This document shows, in pieces, positions 6,400 through 15,460 of a DNA stretch of 25,374 bases. The notes under the pieces were generated by a model. It had not been told where the DNA came from, made no database searches, and worked only from the letters and a program-made list of their open reading frames with translations. Each line of letters opens with the position of its first letter. Positions within the stretch are counted from its first letter, which is position 1. The DNA is from an uncultured Puniceicoccaceae bacterium (GTDB taxonomy: Bacteria > Verrucomicrobiota > Verrucomicrobiia > Opitutales > Seribacteraceae), in assembly GCA_964637065.1 (NCBI GenBank), contig CAZWTI010000015.1, positions 1-25,374 of the forward strand, read 5' to 3'. A program made the position numbers and the translations under genes.

Positions 6400-8235
6400 A
6401 TGAGCATTTCTGACCTTCAGACAATCGAGCACGACGTTCTAGTGGTTGGGGCTGGTGGGGCCGGCATCCGTGCTGCAATTGAGTCTGCGTCCAAGGGATT
6501 GAGCACAGGCTTGCTCTCCAAGTCTCTGCTTGGGAAAGCACACACAGTTATGGCCGAGGGGGGTGTAGCTGCGGCTTTAGGGAATGTAGATTCTCGAGAT
6601 AACTGGAAAATTCATTTTCGCGACACCATGCGCGGGGGCAAATTTCTCAACCAATGGCGCATGGCTCAATTGCATGCCCAACAAGCTCCGGATCGTGTGC
6701 GTGAACTGGAGGAGTGGGGAGCGGTCTTTGACCGTACCGACGAAGGCTTGATCAGCCAACGCAACTTCGGTGGCCATCGCTATCCGAGACTGGCTCACGT
6801 TGGTGATCGAACGGGACTCGAGATCATTCGCACTTTGCAGGATTTTTGCGTCCACCAAGGAATTGCCACCCATATGGAATGTACTGCTCTCGACTTGTTG
6901 CTCGATGGAGACGGCAAGGTGGCTGGCTTGCTTGGTTATTGGAGAGAGACGGGTCGTTTCGTGCTTTTTCGGGCCAAGGCCGTAGTGCTTGCCACAGGTG
7001 GGGGCGGGAAGGCATGGAGGGTGACCTCCAATTCATGGGAGTATACCGGGGATGGCCTGGGGATGGCTTTTCGCGCCGGCGCCGAGATGATAGACATGGA
7101 ATTTACTCAGTTCCATCCCACTGGCATGGTGTGGCCTCCATCGGTACGTGGAATTCTCGTGACGGAAGGCGTTCGTGGTGACGGCGGCATTTTGCTTAAT
7201 AACAAGAACGAACGTTTCATGTTCGATTATATTCCCGAACGTTTCGCTCCCGAGACGGCTGATACCGAGGAGGAGGCTCAAAGTTGGCTGGATGGTGACC
7301 GGGATGCCCGACGTCCGCCCGAATTGCTCACCCGCGACGTTGTGGCTCGAGCCATCACTCGTGAAGTCAAGGAGGGTAGGGGATCACCCAACGGAGGAGT
7401 ATTCCTAGACATTGCATCGCGTCGTCCCGCTGATTTCATTCGTCGCAAGTTGCCCTCCATGTTTCACCAGTTCAAGGAATTGGCGGAAATCGATATTACC
7501 GAAGAGCCCATGGAGGTGGGGCCGACACTTCACTATTTCATGGGCGGTATTCGAGTTGACGACGAAACCCAAGAGACGTGCGTTCCGGGCCTCTTTGCTT
7601 CTGGGGAGTGTGCCGGCGGTATGCATGGAGCCAATAGGTTGGGCGGCAATTCACTTTCAGACCTTTTGGTTTTCGGCAAGTTGTCCGGGGATGGTGCGAT
7701 CGAATATGTCCAAAAGTTAAATTCCTTGCCGTCCGTTGACGAAGCTCAGGTTCAAGAACTCATGCGTCAGGCAACGGCTCCTCTCAATCGCGAGGACGGA
7801 TCTAATCCTTACCTCATTCAAGAAAAACTTCAGCAAATGATGCAACGTTGCGTCGGCATTGTTCGCAATGCCGAAGATTTGCAAAAAGGTCTTGATGAAT
7901 TGGAAGAACTTCGCGAGGAAACCAAGACAGTGAAGGCTCACGCTTCCGCTCAATACAATCCTGGGTGGAACGTTGCCTTGGATTTGCCTAATTTGCTTAT
8001 AACTGCCGAGGCAGTCACCAAGGCTGCCCTCATCCGCGAAGAAAGCCGTGGCGCTCATACCCGAACCGATTTTGAGGGAGAGCGAGACGAATGGTTGAAA
8101 TACAACGTTATCTTAAGTCCTGGCGAGGATGGCGAGGTGGCGGTTCGCAAGGAAGAGCGGGCCGATCCCCCAGAGGATTTGGCGGCCATTGCTAACGCCA
8201 CCCTTGAAGAATTGGAGGCTGATGACGATGTCTGA
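6400..8235 (+). CDS. sdhA: Succinate dehydrogenase/fumarate reductase flavoprotein subunit (Rv0248c-like)
   Basis: VVGAGGAG FAD fold, KAHTVMAEGG flavinylation motif, QFHPTG, TEGVRGDGG, RDVVARAI, HYFMGG, HGANRLGGNSL, ESRGAH. Confidence 0.96.
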   Translation: MSISDLQTIEHDVLVVGAGGAGIRAAIESASKGLSTGLLSKSLLGKAHTVMAEGGVAAALGNVDSRDNWKIHFRDTMRGGKFLNQWRMAQLHAQQAPDRVRELEEWGAVFDRTDEGLISQRNFGGHRYPRLAHVGDRTGLEIIRTLQDFCVHQGIATHMECTALDLLLDGDGKVAGLLGYWRETGRFVLFRAKAVVLATGGGGKAWRVTSNSWEYTGDGLGMAFRAGAEMIDMEFTQFHPTGMVWPPSVRGILVTEGVRGDGGILLNNKNERFMFDYIPERFAPETADTEEEAQSWLDGDRDARRPPELLTRDVVARAITREVKEGRGSPNGGVFLDIASRRPADFIRRKLPSMFHQFKELAEIDITEEPMEVGPTLHYFMGGIRVDDETQETCVPGLFASGECAGGMHGANRLGGNSLSDLLVFGKLSGDGAIEYVQKLNSLPSVDEAQVQELMRQATAPLNREDGSNPYLIQEKLQQMMQRCVGIVRNAEDLQKGLDELEELREETKTVKAHASAQYNPGWNVALDLPNLLITAEAVTKAALIREESRGAHTRTDFEGERDEWLKYNVILSPGEDGEVAVRKEERADPPEDLAAIANATLEELEADDDV

Positions 8236-9007
8236 ACGAAAATTCAAGGTTTGGCGTGGAGACTCTGACGGAGGAGAATTCAAGGAATACTCCGTTGAAC
8301 TCGACCGAGGGATGGTCGTACTCGATGCGCTCCACCTGATACAGGCTCAGCATGCAGGCGACCTTGCCGTCCGCTGGAACTGCAAGGCGGGCAAGTGTGG
8401 TTCTTGCAGCATGGAAATAAACGGGCGACCCCGACTTAGTTGCATGACGCGCATCAATGAGTTCGGCTCCGACGAACTAATCACCGTACGCCCAATCAAG
8501 ACCTTTCCTGTCATCAAGGATCTAGTCACCGATGTTTCCTGGAACTACGACCAGAACAAGCGCATCAAGCCCTTCAAGCCTAAAGAGAAGGATGCCGACG
8601 GCAATCATCGGATGATGCAGCGCGACGTGGAGCGTGTACAGGAGTTCCGCAAGTGTATAGAGTGCTATCTTTGCCAGAATGTCTGCCATGTTTTGCGCGA
8701 TCAAGACCGCAAGGATGACTTCGTTGGCCCTCGTTTCATGATTCGCATAGCATCCTTGGAGATGCACCCCCTTGACGTTGAGGACCGCGTACCCGAAACC
8801 CGCGACGAGTATGGTTCCGGCATGTGCAATATCACCCGTTGCTGTACTGACGTTTGCCCCGAGCACATCCAGATTACTGACAACGGCATTATACCGATGA
8901 AGGAACGAGTAGTGGATCGTTTTTATGATCCCGTCCTTTGGTTGTTTCGTAAGATCATGGGTTCGGACAAGAAGAAATCATCCGTTCCGGTCGTTGATAA
9001 GGACTGA
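8228..9007 (+). CDS. sdhB: Succinate dehydrogenase iron-sulfur subunit (Rv0247c-like)
   Basis: CKAGKCGSC...C [2Fe-2S], CIECYLCQNVC and CNITRCCTDVCP cluster motifs. ATG 8228 overlaps the sdhA stop (8233-8235); the extension to 8129 is not needed. Confidence 0.96.
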   Translation: MSERKFKVWRGDSDGGEFKEYSVELDRGMVVLDALHLIQAQHAGDLAVRWNCKAGKCGSCSMEINGRPRLSCMTRINEFGSDELITVRPIKTFPVIKDLVTDVSWNYDQNKRIKPFKPKEKDADGNHRMMQRDVERVQEFRKCIECYLCQNVCHVLRDQDRKDDFVGPRFMIRIASLEMHPLDVEDRVPETRDEYGSGMCNITRCCTDVCPEHIQITDNGIIPMKERVVDRFYDPVLWLFRKIMGSDKKKSSVPVVDKD

Positions 9008-9089
9008 ACAGTTCAACTAACCTTCCCCCCTTCGTCCGAATCTTGAATAACGTTGCGGGTTGCCGCTCCGTTTGAAAAATCGTCTACAT

Positions 9090-10499
9090 ATGGCTGAAGA
9101 CAAACAGGCAACTTGGGGAGGAAGATTCACGGAAGGTCCATCCGAGTTGATGCATTGGTTTTGCGAGTCGGTTTCCTTTGACAAGCGACTTGCTCGTTTC
9201 GACGTGGCCGGAAGCAAGGCTCACTCCACCATGCTTGCCAAGCTCGGTTTGCTCACTGAGGAGGAATGTTCTGCCATTCATGTGGGTCTGGACGAATTGT
9301 TGACTGAAATCGACGAAGGTTCTTTCAATTGGGACGCATCCCTTGAGGATGTGCACATGAACCTCGAGCATGCCCTTCTCGAAAAGACTCCTGCCGCTGC
9401 CAAGCTTCACGCAGGCAGAAGTCGTAACGATCAAGTTGCAACAGACATGCGGCTATTCTTCAAGGATGCCTGCGGCAAGTTGGAAGAGACGATCGAGACC
9501 GTTATGAAAGCACTGCTGGTTCAAGCAAAGGTTCATGCGACTGTTCCTATACCTGGTTACACTCACCTCCAGCGGGCCCAACCTGTCACTGTCGGTCATC
9601 ATTTCCTCGCCCACCTCGAAGCCTTTGCTCGTGATCTGCTTCGTTTCTCCGAGGTTTCGGATCACGCTAATGTCTGCCCTCTGGGTTCCGGAGCAATCGC
9701 GGGAAGCACGTTGCCTCTAGATCGAGAACTCGTTGCTCGCGAGCTTGGATTCGTGGATGAAGACGGCAAACCTCGACTCACTGCCAATAGCATGGACGCA
9801 GTGGCAGATCGTGATCTTTTCGTAGAATTCGCGTCAGCGTGCGCCATCTGTGGGCTGCATGTTTCACGTTTGGCCGAGGATCTTATCCTATGGAATTCAA
9901 GCGAGTTCGGTTTTGTCGTTCTGCCGGATGCTTTTACCACGGGTTCGTCGCTCATGCCTCAGAAGAAGAACCCCGATGCCCTGGAATTGCTGCGGGGCAA
10001 GACAGGGCGACTCGTTGGCAACCTCCAAGCACTTTTCGTTGCCATCAAGGGTCTGCCTCTTACCTACAACAGAGACCTGCAGGAGGACAAGCCGCCGGTC
10101 TTTGATTCCTTCGACCAACTTGGCATGGGACTCGCCGTTCTTGCGGGTACGGTTGCCGGCTTGGAGATCAATGAGGGTCGCTGTCGAGAGGCAGCTTCCG
10201 ATCCCTTGTTGCTCGCTACCGACTTGGCGGATCATCTGGTTGAAAATGGTGTTCCTTTCCGTGAGGCTCATCATGCCGTTGGCGCCTTGGTTGCCTGTGC
10301 GGAGAAGGCAGGCGTGAGTTTGCCCGAATTGACTAATGATCAGGCGCATTCGGCTCACGAGGCCTGTTTAAGCCTTGGTTCGGATTGGCGTGAGGTTTTT
10401 GACTTGGATCGTGCCTTTTCCCGACGGGATAAGCCCGGTATGCCCGGGCCAAAGCAAGTCGCTTCGCGCATCTCTCACTGGGAAAACCTTCTGAGTTGA
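9090..10499 (+). CDS. argH: Argininosuccinate lyase
   Basis: [53 protein letters not shown] 9090 preferred over TTG 9060. Confidence 0.98.
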
Positions 10500-10520
10500 A
10501 ACTTGAGGGGTTACAATCAT

Positions 10521-11564
10521 ATGCATCACTTCCTCACATGCATCTTTTTTTTGTCGCTTGTTTGCTCGGTGTGGAGTGAACCACGTACTTGGACCACGAC
10601 TGATGGACGCAAGGCCGAAGGGGAACTGTTCGAGGTTGTCGGCGATGAAATTGGTCTGCTGATAGGTAGACAAGAATTTCGTTTTCCTCTTTCCCGCTTT
10701 ATTCCTGCAGACCATTCCTTTGTGCGTCAGTGGCAATCCAAGCCCCGATGCCATTTGTGTCACAATCCGCTTGGCACCCGCACCATGGAGGCGGGAGGAA
10801 GAACCTATCACACTTCATGCTTTCGTTGTCTTGTTTGCAAGAAGGTGTTCAAGGGTGGTGACAAGTTTCGTCGCGACCAATGGGGCATGCTTGCTCATGT
10901 TGAACATTTCTCGTTCGTGGCAACCTGTGGATCCTGTGGACGAATGTTTCGTAAGCGGGATGCCCGTCCGCAACAAGTCCTTCGTGATGGACGCATAGCC
11001 TGTCTCTCCTGTTTAGGTAATGCCGTGCTCGACGAAGCAACACTTGGTCTCGTCAACGATCGAGTGAAGGAATCATTGAGCAAGTGCGGGATCGAAAAGC
11101 CTGATGGAAAGATTACTCTGTTCATTGTGGACAAGACCAAACTGGACATCGAGGCGAAGCGCATTCATGCCGGCGGCAATCTGAAGGGCCTTACGCTTAC
11201 CAAGTTCCGTACCGTAACCAAAGGCGATGTTTCCAACACCACTTTCGAACATCGCATAATGGTGCTTTTCGGGCTTCCTCATGTGGAATGCGAGGCTGTT
11301 CTTGCCCATGAATATATGCATGTCTGGCTAAACGAACGCTTCATCGAGGGATCGCTGGGTACAATTGAAGGATTTTGCAACCTCGGTTCTGCGGCTCTAC
11401 TCAAGTTGGAGACGAGCAAACTGTCCTCCATCCTCATGAATAACATGCTCAATAATCCCAATCCCGTTTATGGTGACGGTTATCGTAAAATGGCTTCTCG
11501 TCTCAACCAGATTGGCTGGTCTCGCCTTCTTGGCGAAATGCGTGCGAGGGCAAAGAAAAAATAG
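10521..11564 (+). CDS. Exported SHD1 + LIM-type zinc fingers + DA1-family zinc metallopeptidase
   Basis: Signal peptide MHHFLTCIFFLSLVCSVWS; SHD1-like RTWTTTDGRKAEG...FPLSRFIPADHSFVRQW; CxxC-16-HxxCxxCxxC-19-HxxH; CxxC...DGRIACLSC; LFGLP...LAHEYMHVWL, EGFC, PVYGDGYR. ATG 10521 preferred over TTG 10503. Confidence 0.85.
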   Translation: MHHFLTCIFFLSLVCSVWSEPRTWTTTDGRKAEGELFEVVGDEIGLLIGRQEFRFPLSRFIPADHSFVRQWQSKPRCHLCHNPLGTRTMEAGGRTYHTSCFRCLVCKKVFKGGDKFRRDQWGMLAHVEHFSFVATCGSCGRMFRKRDARPQQVLRDGRIACLSCLGNAVLDEATLGLVNDRVKESLSKCGIEKPDGKITLFIVDKTKLDIEAKRIHAGGNLKGLTLTKFRTVTKGDVSNTTFEHRIMVLFGLPHVECEAVLAHEYMHVWLNERFIEGSLGTIEGFCNLGSAALLKLETSKLSSILMNNMLNNPNPVYGDGYRKMASRLNQIGWSRLLGEMRARAKKK

Positions 11565-11590: not shown

Positions 11591-12418
11591 ATGAAAATCG
11601 ATGCCCATCATCATTTTTGGAAATACGACCCTGTTGAATATGCGTGGATGAAGGAGGACATGGGTGTTCTCAAACGCGACTTCGGTCCCGCCGACCTAAA
11701 GAAAGAAATCGATGAAGCCGGCATAGACGGAGTCGTCTCAGTTCAAGCCAGTCAGACCCTAAATGAGACGGATGCGCTCCTCGATTACGCTGCCCGGGAA
11801 GATTTCATCAAAGGGGTGGTTGGTTGGTTTCCCTTGTCTCAAGATAATGCATTCGAGGTCATTGCCCCTTATGTTGAGAATGGATTTCTCAAGGGCGTCC
11901 GTCACGTGGTACAGGACGAACCGGATGATTGCTTCATCCTTGGAGAGGCTTTCAATCGAGGCGTTGCTCTTCTCAAGGGTTTCGATCTCGTGTACGACAT
12001 ATTGATTTACGAGCGACAGCTTGGTCCATCGATCGAGTTCGTCGACAGACATCCCGACCTAGTCTTTGTTCTCGATCACGTGGCCAAGCCTAGGATTCGC
12101 GACGATGTGAGGGAGCCTTGGTCCGACCTTATGGGCCAAATGGCTGAGCGACCGAACGTTTACTGTAAGCTTTCGGGCATGGCTACCGAAGGGGACTGGT
12201 CTTCTTGGACAAAGGAGCAACTTTTACCTTACATGGAAGTCGCCCTCGAGGCCTTCGGGCCCGATCGTTTGATGTTCGGTTCCGATTGGCCTGTTGCGCT
12301 GCTTGCCATAAACTATCAAAAGTGGGTCAAGGTTGTTGCGGACTTTACCTCCTCCCTTTCCGAAGACGAGCAAGCTGCCGTCTGGGGTAAAACTGCGGTT
12401 CGCGCCTACGATCTATAG
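11591..12418 (+). CDS. Amidohydrolase family, L-fuconolactone hydrolase-like (COG3618) sugar lactonase
   Basis: MKIDAHHHFW, VSVQA, KGVRH, LDHVAKP, CKLSGM, FGSDWPV. Alternative start TTG 11567. Confidence 0.8.
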   Translation: MKIDAHHHFWKYDPVEYAWMKEDMGVLKRDFGPADLKKEIDEAGIDGVVSVQASQTLNETDALLDYAAREDFIKGVVGWFPLSQDNAFEVIAPYVENGFLKGVRHVVQDEPDDCFILGEAFNRGVALLKGFDLVYDILIYERQLGPSIEFVDRHPDLVFVLDHVAKPRIRDDVREPWSDLMGQMAERPNVYCKLSGMATEGDWSSWTKEQLLPYMEVALEAFGPDRLMFGSDWPVALLAINYQKWVKVVADFTSSLSEDEQAAVWGKTAVRAYDL

Positions 12419-12444
12419 CTTGGATGGTTGTTATAATCCAAGCT
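12417..12444. terminator. Inverted repeat between convergent genes, possible bidirectional terminator
   Basis: AGCTTGGAT (12417-12425), 10-nt loop, ATCCAAGCT (12436-12444): perfect 9-bp stem in the convergent gap. No strong U-tract. Confidence 0.45.
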
Positions 12445-12466
12445 CACGAATGAAGGATTACCTTTT

Positions 12467-15460
12467 TTACATTTTGGCGTAACAAAGGGCTTGGCCGTTC
12501 TCCAGAGTCACGAATATCCGGCCTTTGTGATCGATGGACATGCCGCCCTTGATTGGTTGGGCGGGCAAGCTTTCGCTCCATGCTACAACTCCGTCCTTCA
12601 CGCGTATGGCTGCCAAGAAAGGCTTCTTTTCTTCTTCTCCTCCTACATCCCCTGTGGTCAGCAATAGTTCGTCGCTAACGACGAAACTTGCGAATCGCCT
12701 GCCCTGCTTTTCTTGCCAGACAACCTTTCGTTTGTCCGACCAACCTCGCCGGGCCCAACGTGCAGCGTCTTTCCCGACTTTTTGTACTCCGACGGGCAAT
12801 GAAGAAAGAAGGGCAAGCGAAGTGAATCGATTCCCCTCGTAGCTAGCATCGAAGACTAGGGAGCGACCATCGGGCAAGTTGTGGTCAAGCGAGAGGTAGT
12901 TTCCATATTCGGGATAATAGGGATAAAATGCTGTGCGGAATTGTGAACGAGGGTCTTCCTTTGGTGTATTTAGACACTTACCATTCTGCAGGTTGAACCG
13001 TGCAGTCTCGTATACGCCGCCGCCCAAAAAGCAAAGCTCACCGTCTTGCAGGAAGAGATCGCCTTGCATGCTGACTCCACTGTTGACTTTGCCGGAAAGG
13101 CTGCCGGAAGAATCGTTTCGCCACTTAAGCTTGCCTGTCACGGCATCGAGGGCGACCACGTATGTTCCGTCGTAATGGGCGATACCCGCCGCAGCGTAGA
13201 CGGTGCCTTTTTCCACAATTACTCCTCCTGCTACAGGCCATGTAGAGATGAGGTTGCCGAACATCGATATTCGGCGAGCTGAGGGTGCGACCCGAAACGA
13301 CCAGAGTGATCTTCCGGTGGCTGCCTCAAAAGCGTAAACGCGACCATCTGCCGAACCCACGTAGGCTCGGCTGTTCGAAATCGTGGGGGGGTAATAGATT
13401 GCGCCGCCGACATAGACTTTCCACTTTAATTCGCCCTTGGCATCAATGGCTCGCAGGACACCAGTCCGGTCGCCTACGAACACAAGGTTACCAGCTACCA
13501 CGGGGGCGGTCGGCATGGCCTTGTTTGACGAAGCAAAGCTCCACTGCTGTTCAATTTTATTTGGTATGGCAACGGATGTTGAGGGGACGCGGTTGTTGTT
13601 GCCTTGGTAGGTGGCCCAGTCGTCAGGTTGTTCATTAAGTTTTTCCACTTTCTGCAACTCGCCTTCGCCGAGTTCAAGAGCGGGGTGCTCCTCGCCCGGT
13701 AACGGTAATTGCCCTGCCGAGGATGTAAGGCTTATGTGACCGTAGAGCGAGAGTTGACAACCGCACATCCAGGGTCCCCAAAAGAGTTGTCCATCTGAAA
13801 TAATGACGCCATCTTGGCAGGGAGGACGCATGGGGGCGATGTGCTGAGCGGTATTAGAGGGCACGTCAAGTCGCACGGTTCCTCCGGATGTGCGGTAGAA
13901 GATGCTGTCTATGCTGCCTGTGGCTCTGGTACAGGCCCGACGAGTTGGCATCTTCGACAGTTCTCGTCCTGTCGCATATTCAAGCTTGGCTCCGGTTGTC
14001 TTGGGTCCGGCCGTATAGAGTCCGTCGCCTCGCAAAACAAGTTGTAGGTTTCCGTTGGGTTTGTGCCAAAGCAACTTTCCGTTTTTTGTTGAGGCGCAAA
14101 CCAATCGACTCCGCTGAGGGCCCGCGAAAAAGAGATAGTCATCGTTACATTTCATGTAGGCAGTGGTGGCGTAACCCGTGACGTAATGTTGAGCGCGACC
14201 GCTTCCCCCTATCGCTTCCAGCAAATCAGCATCCGAGTTCTCCCAAGCCTTCTTCCCGGAGGAAATATCCAAGCCACCCAAGAATTTTTGCGGGCAGTAG
14301 TAGAACAACTTTCCGTTACGCATGCAAACGCCTCGACTGTCTATGAATTCCTTTTCCGTGTGATTCCATTTAATCCTCTTTGTCTTAAGATTTACGGCAA
14401 TTAGAGTACGCCCGAAACCAAAGCTCTTTTGCGGGTTCTTATAGTCATGCCCCTGCCACATGCCCCACGGCCAGTGCCCAAGGCCACGACGGGTCGAACG
14501 CACCGTATCTACCTTTGTCTCGGTCGCCCCGACGAGTGCATAGAGCACGCCTTTCTCCATCGCCATCCACTTCCAGACCGGACCATCTCCTAAGCCCTTC
14601 GGCACCACGATTTCATCTTTAACTTTACCAGTTGCCGCATCGATGATTTTGCAGGATTCGTCGTCCGCCATGTAGAGGGCGTCGAGTGTGGCGATCATGG
14701 TGTTTCGGTGAATCATGTAGCCCTTCTTCAAGGGCCGTTTCCAGAGGATCGTACCGTTGTAGGCGTTTACGCATAATAGGGTGTTGAGTACTTCATTTTG
14801 GTTGGCCTTGTGGGCAATGTGGCCAAATGCCTTGAATATACGTCCTCCTGCAGCAACCGAGACTTGGGGCATCGGGCTGAATTTCGGCTCTGCTACAAAT
14901 TGCGTAAGGTAAGGGGCTCGAGCGATCCTGTCTGTGGACTGCGGGTTGTTGTCGGGGCCATGGTAGGGATGACTCCAACTGTCGGTGCCCTCTATGGGAG
15001 GCTTGATGATCTGTCGCTTCCCCAGAAACGCTTTGCCTCTCGGGCGGAGCACCCGCAGGATTTCCTTCTCATTGACATCCTCGGTTGAGGCAGAAGCTAC
15101 AAGAACCGCATCTGCAAGATTCGTGGCCAAGTGTATCCTTTTCCAGTCGGCTTTCTCCGCAAAAATACGACGACCCAGCAATCCGGCTTCTTCGGCAGCT
15201 TTGCGAACCTTAGTTAGGTCGGAGTTGCTGGGAGATTGGAAGTAGATCGTAAGTTCGCTTCCGTGCGCCAGATCGACCACATAGTCTGAGTTTTCATTTT
15301 CCGATAAGCCAAATACTGCACAAATGCCTCGAGAGATGCCGACTTTTTCCAAATGAGCCTTGGCAAGCGGTTTTATCTTGGCTTGGGATTGCAGTGCATT
15401 TGCTATGCACGTCGCGAATGTGATCGACAAATATGTGAGGAGGATAGGGATGGGCTTCAT
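12467..15460 (-). CDS. Exported PQQ-like beta-propeller repeat protein with N-terminal methyltransferase-like Rossmann domain
   Basis: Signal peptide MKPIPILLTYLSITFATCIANA; MTase-like segment GICAVFG...LADAVLV...EILRVLRPRG; WSHPYHGPDNN; repeated GxLxWK / A.DA.TGKxxW propeller motifs in two clusters. Alternative start 15484. Confidence 0.8.
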   Translation of the reverse strand: MKPIPILLTYLSITFATCIANALQSQAKIKPLAKAHLEKVGISRGICAVFGLSENENSDYVVDLAHGSELTIYFQSPSNSDLTKVRKAAEEAGLLGRRIFAEKADWKRIHLATNLADAVLVASASTEDVNEKEILRVLRPRGKAFLGKRQIIKPPIEGTDSWSHPYHGPDNNPQSTDRIARAPYLTQFVAEPKFSPMPQVSVAAGGRIFKAFGHIAHKANQNEVLNTLLCVNAYNGTILWKRPLKKGYMIHRNTMIATLDALYMADDESCKIIDAATGKVKDEIVVPKGLGDGPVWKWMAMEKGVLYALVGATETKVDTVRSTRRGLGHWPWGMWQGHDYKNPQKSFGFGRTLIAVNLKTKRIKWNHTEKEFIDSRGVCMRNGKLFYYCPQKFLGGLDISSGKKAWENSDADLLEAIGGSGRAQHYVTGYATTAYMKCNDDYLFFAGPQRSRLVCASTKNGKLLWHKPNGNLQLVLRGDGLYTAGPKTTGAKLEYATGRELSKMPTRRACTRATGSIDSIFYRTSGGTVRLDVPSNTAQHIAPMRPPCQDGVIISDGQLFWGPWMCGCQLSLYGHISLTSSAGQLPLPGEEHPALELGEGELQKVEKLNEQPDDWATYQGNNNRVPSTSVAIPNKIEQQWSFASSNKAMPTAPVVAGNLVFVGDRTGVLRAIDAKGELKWKVYVGGAIYYPPTISNSRAYVGSADGRVYAFEAATGRSLWSFRVAPSARRISMFGNLISTWPVAGGVIVEKGTVYAAAGIAHYDGTYVVALDAVTGKLKWRNDSSGSLSGKVNSGVSMQGDLFLQDGELCFLGGGVYETARFNLQNGKCLNTPKEDPRSQFRTAFYPYYPEYGNYLSLDHNLPDGRSLVFDASYEGNRFTSLALLSSLPVGVQKVGKDAARWARRGWSDKRKVVWQEKQGRRFASFVVSDELLLTTGDVGGEEEKKPFLAAIRVKDGVVAWSESLPAQPIKGGMSIDHKGRIFVTLENGQALCYAKM

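Follow-up and report, generated by a model that had tools for sequence, protein, structure and literature searches.

Plant DA1 is a ubiquitin-activated protease that controls growth. It is a site-specific endopeptidase that cuts BB at NTNA|YKFG (PMC5322733; PMC12485226) and is listed in MEROPS as M102 (PMC8643629; PMC12485226). Related proteins occur in prokaryotes. Dong et al. (2017; PMC5322733) aligned the LIM-like region of DA1 with Roseiflexus proteins, and Burroughs, Iyer and Aravind (2011), as far as their study is cited in PMC5322733, noted prokaryotic forms in which LIM and DA1-like domains are combined. In the NCBI annotation bacterial members carry the name 'protein DA1'. Here we describe such a protein, encoded at positions 10521 to 11564 of a stretch of DNA from an uncultured Puniceicoccaceae bacterium (GTDB: Opitutales; Seribacteraceae), which comprises positions 1-25,374 of contig CAZWTI010000015.1 in assembly GCA_964637065.1 and is referred to in the following as the window. 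The protein is an uncharacterised member of a family already recognised in bacteria, so that the classification itself remains unchanged; its distinguishing detail is an SHD1 domain that has taken the place of a LIM domain.

The protein consists of a signal-like N-terminus followed by an SHD1 fold, a LIM domain with two zinc sites, one zinc ribbon and a gluzincin catalytic domain. The AlphaFold2 model, computed from a 100-sequence alignment, has a predicted local distance difference test score (pLDDT) of 94.6 and a predicted template modelling score (pTM) of 0.90, and residues 1-20 are its sole poorly defined part (pLDDT 51-62). Conservation was assessed over 100 relatives that are 22-80% identical to the peptidase. 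The gene and its parts are the following:

10505..10510, plus strand: Shine-Dalgarno-like GAGGGG, 10 nt before the ATG, read from the sequence
10521..11564, plus strand: whole open reading frame of the SHD1-LIM-DA1-like zinc peptidase, predicted to be exported; 347 amino acids and stop, with the ATG at 10521 and the stop codon at 11562-11564
10521..10577, plus strand: probable Sec signal peptide, residues 1-19, MHHFLTCIFFLSLVCSVWS, with V-W-S before the predicted cleavage point; heuristic assignment
10578..10742, plus strand: SHD1-fold domain, residues 20-74, four strands and a C-terminal helix; from the fold match and hhalign
10743..10910, plus strand: LIM domain, residues 75-130; from Pfam PF00412, Foldseek and the conserved ligands
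10920..11018, plus strand: extra zinc ribbon containing DGRIACLSC, residues 134-166, its four cysteines invariant in 100 members
11028..11561, plus strand: DA1-like (MEROPS M102-type) gluzincin peptidase domain, residues 170-347; from Pfam PF12315 and VIA-align
11307..11321, plus strand: HEYMH zinc-binding and catalytic motif (H263, E264, H267), invariant in 100 sequences and lying in helix 254-272
11367..11369, plus strand: E283, predicted third zinc ligand (HEYMH-x15-E; EGFC motif), with E283 and G284 invariant
11469..11486, plus strand: YGDGYR motif with Y317 and G318 invariant, Y317 being a candidate transition-state-stabilising tyrosine

Membership in the DA1-like family is supported by profiles, by collinearity and by fold. 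An earlier note on this DNA had read from the letters LIM-type fingers followed by five motifs in the order in which plant DA1 has them, and all are present in the translation: DGRIACLSCLGNAVLD at residues 156-171, IMVLFGLP at 246-253, VLAHEYMHVWL at 260-270, IEGFC at 282-286 and NPVYGDGYR at 314-322. Its assignment of the HExxH domain to the DA1 family is borne out, since the Pfam DA1-like profile PF12315 reaches 46.1 bits with the whole protein and 49.6 bits with the C-terminal part (cut-off 25), next to 36.9-43.1 bits for the Pfam LIM profile PF00412 (cut-off 22.9); PF12315 is also matched by 99 of the 100 relatives. Collinearity with DA1-type LIM peptidases, which the note had likewise proposed, was found with P0234, a 555-residue protein from a metagenomic eukaryotic contig that served as the only stand-in for eukaryotic DA1 in both alignment and tree. 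In hhalign, 266 columns of a profile of the SHD1-bearing clade (query residues 74-343) align with P0234 with a probability of 99.4% (E 1.7e-21), without change of order from the LIM domain to the C-terminus, and the ribbon region aligns with TCFACGR...DGRSLCAQC of P0234. NCBIfam holds no model for the SHD1-LIM-DA1-like protein. The protein is thus a divergent but genuine member of the DA1-like (PF12315/MEROPS M102) LIM-peptidases.

The structural comparisons, which the note had suggested as a check, matched the N-terminal domain to Sla1 SHD1, the middle part to LIM structures and the C-terminal part to catalytic domains of the M1 and thermolysin types. For the middle part, Foldseek retrieved LIM structures only (TM-score 0.5-0.62, root-mean-square deviation (rmsd) 2-3 A, ~58 residues), for example 3f6q_B (TM-score 0.62, rmsd 2.1 A) and 2dlo (rmsd 2.5 A, 31% identity). 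When the PDB was searched by sequence, the hits were again confined to LIM domains, from which we conclude that no structure of the DA1 family has been solved. The LIM ligands, C77-x2-C80-x16-H97-x2-C100-x2-C103-x2-C106-x19-H126-x2-H129, fit the eight-ligand consensus C-x2-C-x16-23-H-x2-C-x2-C-x2-C-x16-21-C/H-x2-C/H/D, and those of the ribbon are C136-x2-C139-x21-C161-x2-C164. When the catalytic part of the model (residues 165/170-347) was compared exhaustively with solved structures by VIA-align, the tricorn-interacting factor F3 (1z1w) and aminopeptidase N (6oiu) matched with Z 10.5, followed by leukotriene A4 hydrolase (Z 9.8) and thermolysin (Z 8.2), and the catalytic-site residues are carried by the model helices 254-272 and 279-294. 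The modelled catalytic domain is accordingly classed as a gluzincin fold of clan MA(E).

Twelve residues of the zinc and catalytic sites are invariant in the 100 relatives (C100, C103, C136, C139, C161, C164, H263, E264, H267, E283, Y317 and G318), C77, C80, H97, C106 and H129 are conserved in at least 90% of them, and H126 is invariant among 15 closer relatives. The catalytic site reads H263-E264-x2-H267-x15-E283. In Arabidopsis DA1 the corresponding arrangement is HEMMH-x15-EE, and the AEMMA mutant is inactive (PMC5322733). Because the glutamate follows the HExxH motif at the same x15 spacing and the catalytic residues are kept, the enzyme looks active from its sequence. A role of Y317 in stabilising the transition state is inferred by analogy with the M1 and thermolysin-type enzymes. 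That the protein might instead be catalytically dead, a scaffold whose SHD1 and LIM domains do no more than bind partners, is hardly credible: the plant DAR members do include inhibitory and decoy forms (bioRxiv 10.1101/2022.06.21.497003), yet there is no direct evidence for such a scaffold here, and H263, E264, H267, E283 and Y317 stay invariant across sequences that share as little as 22% identity with the peptidase.

Residues upstream of the LIM domain set this protein apart. The earlier note had seen the ubiquitin-interacting motifs (UIMs) of plant DA1 replaced by a signal peptide and an SHD1 domain. This stands as far as the motif is concerned, because Pfam found no UIM in the bacterial protein, whose N-terminal 74 residues are instead occupied by the signal peptide, assigned heuristically, and SHD1. 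The SHD1 domain itself was recovered by hhalign and by fold, not by its Pfam profile PF03983 as the note had suggested. That profile gives no match to residues 1-80 even at E<=10, and only 2 of 25 orthologue N-termini reach E ~0.09. By contrast, a profile of the orthologue N-termini matches the SHD1 domain of another protein of the same genome, on contig 87, with 97% probability (E 8.8e-11) in hhalign, and that contig 87 protein scores 24 bits as DNA (cut-off 23.7) and 21.3 bits as protein against Pfam SHD1. In the model, residues 19-74 superpose on the SHD1 domain of Sla1 (2hbp; VIA-align Z 8.8, 56 residues aligned at an rmsd of 1.8 A), and a protein-atlas feature search with the N-terminal part produced weak leads only, all to SHD1 (score 0.80). 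The N-terminal domain is therefore an SHD1 domain that Pfam alone misses.

With the N-terminal-domain profile, six SHD1 modules were found in the genome, which is 79% complete, each of them right behind a hydrophobic leader. Besides the module of the peptidase these are (all from the L065-L069 set):

C240:4860-5024: SHD1-like module of a PQQ-type beta-propeller protein
C350:7718-7882: SHD1-like module of a trypsin-like protease
C87:313-462: SHD1-like module of a CAP-domain protein
C191:257-388, minus strand: SHD1-like module of a protein with three tandem SHD1 repeats
C403:779-949: SHD1-like module of a 769-residue PSCyt/PSD-like protein beside a DUF1501-like gene, both assignments having been made by eye and not by Pfam

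These five proteins are otherwise unrelated to each other, and the Pfam SHD1 profile detects only one of them above its cut-off. The literature searched contained no paper on bacterial SHD1. The domain recurs as an unstudied module of Verrucomicrobial proteins that appear to be exported. Its recurrence behind leaders suggests a common docking or partner-binding role. A more far-reaching proposal, which we advance tentatively and consider doubtful, is that SHD1 acts in the Verrucomicrobial envelope as a common address tag or adaptor, docking the peptidase and the five other proteins onto one envelope partner or one peptide motif; in that case the LIM-DA1 peptidase would be a site-specific processing enzyme of an extracytoplasmic space that is without canonical disulfide machinery and tolerates thiolate zinc fingers.

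Export of the peptidase through the Sec pathway is likely, judging from its N-terminus and those of its orthologues. MHHFLTCIFFLSLVCSVWS has a mean Kyte-Doolittle hydropathy of 2.67 over 12 residues, and by the same heuristic V-W-S precedes E20. In 42 of 46 orthologous reading frames a hydrophobic stretch stands directly before the R-x-W-T with which SHD1 starts, its sequence drifting while its character is kept, and several of these leaders end in A-x-A-like sites. A signal-like leader is also present in 72 of the 94 superfamily representatives that start with Met.

Two other readings of this N-terminus have to be weighed. It could be an uncleaved signal anchor that tethers the peptidase to the inner membrane with its domains facing the periplasm, a possibility that we keep in mind as the less probable form of export. 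Some orthologues do lack a clean A-x-A site (e.g., ...SFGW-S/GRVW), but the hydrophobic core of ~15 residues is short for a membrane span, and small residues occupy positions -3/-1 just before SHD1 in many orthologues (ALA-E, ATA-Q, AWA-E, VWS-E). A cytoplasmic protein, whose zinc fingers would be of the classical reduced kind and whose hydrophobic N-terminus would not serve export, is on the other hand very improbable. Both gene neighbours encode cytoplasmic enzymes, about one-fifth of the superfamily representatives begin directly at the first CxxC without a hydrophobic leader, and zinc fingers are normally intracellular; however, retention of the hydrophobic character in those 42 orthologues in spite of sequence drift argues against a cytoplasmic protein, as do the similar leaders in front of the SHD1 modules in the five other proteins of the genome.

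If the peptidase is exported by the Sec pathway, its zinc fingers have to persist outside the cytoplasm. Thiolate zinc fingers in this location are made plausible by the failure to detect DsbB and VKOR in the family: neither was found in any of 28 family genomes, of which 26 reach a completeness of 90% or more, and the named positive-control genomes scored as expected. In the phylum sample, DsbB or VKOR occurred in 0 of 55 genomes that hold a LIM-DA1 protein versus 22 of 346 others. A link between the presence of LIM-DA1 and the absence of DsbB/VKOR was nevertheless dropped, the difference being small and confounded by kinship. As a separate observation, this sample suggests that most of its bacteria do without a canonical periplasmic disulfide-oxidising pathway.

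We consider it probable, though well short of certain, that the gene product is a zinc endopeptidase of the DA1-like family (PF12315, M102 type) which is exported and processes or turns over envelope or secreted proteins. In the mechanism that we propose, the protein would be translocated by Sec and its signal peptide cut just before SHD1, after which it would take up four zinc ions as it folds, either in the periplasm or beyond it. The catalytic zinc would be held by H263, H267 and E283, with E264 activating the water molecule, and substrates would be bound as an extended strand, as they are in other gluzincins. The zinc-finger block, which is packed on the peptidase in the model (pTM 0.90), and SHD1 may select or recruit protein partners and would in this way replace the control that ubiquitin and UIMs exert on plant DA1. 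By analogy with the plant enzyme, the most likely role is to cut envelope or secreted proteins at specific sites, either to process them or to turn them over, and the protein would be expressed jointly with housekeeping genes. Weak evidence that the gene is expressed comes from a marine metatranscriptome, in which two contigs of 151 nt are identical to positions 10992-11294.

Several points weigh against an exported endopeptidase of this kind. The PF12315 profile aligns in pieces only (profile positions 81-107 and 168-211), as with a divergent member, and the signal peptide was assigned by a heuristic. Twelve cysteine and histidine zinc ligands outside the cytoplasm are unusual. The scarcity of disulfide-forming enzymes extends over the whole phylum (DsbB in 2 and VKOR in 21 of 401 genomes), and their lack in the family is therefore a permissive background and not a specific adaptation. 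The evidence for expression consists of two short contigs, in which DNA carry-over is possible, and both conserved neighbours of the gene are cytoplasmic enzymes, which offer no functional clue. Finally, the literature searched contained no bacterial DA1-like member that had been characterised with respect to activity, zinc content, localisation or substrate, which agrees with the earlier statement that bacterial PF12315 members exist and that none is known to be characterised.

Within one marine Opitutales family the gene belongs to the core set, is inherited vertically as a single copy and occupies a fixed slot. It is present in single copy in 68 of the 76 genomes of this family and in 25 of its 26 high-quality ones, across all five genera, and a sample of the remaining order contained no match with this query. 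The closest relatives (44-80% identity, with the same length and architecture) come from marine metagenomes and, among named genomes, from Opitutales, Puniceicoccaceae and 'Candidatus Seribacter'. Among the genomes compared, the SHD1-LIM-DA1 architecture did not turn up outside the window's own family. More distant LIM-DA1 proteins, which share 26-33% identity, are present in other classes of the phylum, and distant members were also found in Sericytochromatia, Bacteroidota and Marinisomatota. In all, ~1330 representative clusters match at E<=1e-3 and named bacterial members belong to at least five phyla, so that the notion of LIM domains as essentially eukaryotic, which the earlier note had adopted, is outdated.

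The slot is defined by the two neighbouring genes:

9060..10499, plus strand: argH (argininosuccinate lyase), upstream neighbour; TIGR00838, 536.8 bits
11591..12418, plus strand: Amidohydro_2 enzyme resembling L-fucono-1,5-lactonase, downstream neighbour; PF04909 183.5 bits, and NF052480 275.7 bits, which is below the 400-bit cut-off

Neither neighbour has a leader. The gap between the argH stop codon (10497-10499) and the ATG at 10521 measures 21 nt, and that between the stop of the peptidase gene and the next ATG at 11591 measures 26 nt; in a promoter and terminator scan, which as a whole did not rise above shuffled background, no terminator-like site was found in either gap. The GC content of the gene region (0.49-0.53) is the same as that of the remainder of the window. 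The argH gene lies directly upstream in almost all family loci that reach that far, and the order argH, DA1-like gene, Amidohydro_2 is kept in ~40 loci, whose DA1-like proteins are 44-73% identical to that of the window; in five of these loci the tblastn matches of the DA1-like gene and the amidohydrolase overlap.

The surrounding genes show some further peculiarities. Upstream of argH, in a comparison with loci L003-L064, the genes for the flavoprotein and Fe-S subunits of a succinate dehydrogenase/fumarate reductase (window 6400-9007) are 87-92% identical to those of L032 and L037, two loci whose DA1-like proteins are only 49% identical to that of the window, whereas in the closest relatives, e.g., L003 (DA1-like protein 73% identical), the genes found in this place reach just 24-29% identity. 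A cassette seems to have been exchanged here, or else the locus seems to accommodate two types of enzyme. Downstream, on the minus strand between 12467 and 20000, a 1005-residue PQQ-like beta-propeller protein is followed by a DUF1501 gene, a DUF1549/DUF1553 (PSCyt2/PSD1) gene and then genes for a PhyH-family dioxygenase, an aceric-acid-hydrolase-like protein and a sulfatase-like protein. The pair of DUF1501 and DUF1549/DUF1553 is typical of Planctomycetes and Verrucomicrobia, and the gene set is consistent with a marine polysaccharide degrader.

The relation to eukaryotic DA1 was approached through P0234; among the hits obtained with the peptidase region and with a 100-sequence profile there was no plant sequence. 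The contig that encodes P0234 is taken to be eukaryotic because it carries split genes for casein kinase II beta and phosphomannose isomerase, and P0234 itself combines a UIM-like motif in its N-terminal part (DPDLELAIQLSLAEQ) with LIM domains and a DA1-like match of 145.7 bits. This contig, L070, holds two DA1-like genes ~2.5 kb apart (8001-9668 and 12148-14181, encoding 555 and 677 amino acids, respectively), the first of which clearly encodes a UIM at the N-terminus and shows no sign of introns. A quick maximum-likelihood analysis of 66 sequences recovered the SHD1 clade as monophyletic (support of 97 in the Shimodaira-Hasegawa-like approximate likelihood ratio test, SH-aLRT). The clade is nested in a starred group made up of 36 bacterial rows, and P0234 is placed on the other side on a long branch. 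There P0234 groups, with weak support (SH-aLRT 92, long branch), with two leaderless bacterial forms (P0118 and P0159), which hints that eukaryotic DA1 derived from cytoplasmic rather than exported bacterial versions. The phylogenetic check proposed earlier is thus favourable to bacterial nesting in the free tree, with the reservation that it includes one eukaryotic sequence only and that a tree joining P0234 to the SHD1 clade is not rejected by the approximately unbiased (AU) test (p 0.186).

It had been proposed that the protein is either an ancestral ubiquitin-independent DA1 protease or an effector acquired from or aimed at algae. As an effector, the protein would have been taken up from algae or be secreted to cut DA1 substrates of algae or other hosts. 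Circumstances of the organisms lend this some appeal, as they are marine Opitutales from seawater and plankton metagenomes, the window contains gene types of polysaccharide degradation (sulfatase, lactonase-like enzyme), the protein is apparently exported and the AU test tolerates the grouping of P0234 with the clade. We nevertheless judge it very unlikely. Effectors are usually patchy and island-borne, whereas this gene is a single-copy core gene of a whole family, with local base composition and a fixed position between argH and the lactonase gene, and no dedicated secretion system adjoins it. The protein is also 26-37% identical to other bacterial members among the matches listed, against 23% to P0234, whose peptidase domain contains long insertions that are missing from the bacterial protein, and the free tree separates the two. 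Chlamydomonas lacks M102 altogether (PMC8643629). Recent acquisition from algae is argued against by the core-gene status, the fixed gene order and the nesting among bacterial relatives, and the algal half of the proposal is not supported. The ancestral half survives only loosely, in that the protein belongs to a broad family of bacterial peptidases that are independent of ubiquitin.

This DA1-like protein, probably an exported endopeptidase, is of interest beyond its own family. In its compact form of 347 amino acids, which is free of ubiquitin control, it would offer a tractable model for the LIM-ribbon-peptidase core; its structure is predicted with high confidence, and it belongs to the core genes of a widespread marine Opitutales family. 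It also raises the question of how cysteine-ligated zinc fingers survive outside the cytoplasm.

Compared with known systems, the protein combines features of four. It shares the fold of yeast Sla1 SHD1 (2hbp; PF03983), with 56 of 66 residues aligned, at 16% identity and out of reach of the PF03983 model; in Sla1 the domain is part of an endocytic adaptor, whereas here it stands at the mature N-terminus of apparently exported bacterial proteins. With the M1 aminopeptidases and thermolysin-like gluzincins it shares the fold (Z 8-10.5) and the succession of an HExxH helix and a Glu-bearing helix, but it is only 7-16% identical to them, has a short Glu spacing (x15) and lacks both the N-terminal and C-terminal domains of M1 and the GxMEN exopeptidase motif, so that an endopeptidase like DA1 would be expected by analogy. 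The other bacterial LIM and DA1-like peptidases have the same LIM-ribbon-peptidase core and mostly a signal-like N-terminus (the 72 of 94 mentioned above); typical members, however, have two or more LIM domains before the ribbon (consensus of 100), where this protein has a single one preceded by SHD1. The plant DA1/DAR proteins (Arabidopsis DA1, M102.001) are alike in the LIM domain, the DGRxxCxxC ribbon and an HExxH-x15-E peptidase ending in PVYGxG(F/Y)R. They differ from the bacterial protein, which lacks UIMs and a ubiquitin system and has a probable signal peptide followed by SHD1 where the UIMs would be. The bacterial protein also has three zinc-finger modules in contrast to four pairs in the LIM-like region and a LIM in plant DA1 (PMC5322733), and it is without the insertions of the eukaryotic peptidase domain, with an identity of only ~23-27%. 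Its location is predicted from the sequence to be extracytoplasmic, while plant DA1 is nucleo-cytoplasmic. The protein thus belongs to the broad DA1-like family and stands outside its ubiquitin-regulated plant subfamily.

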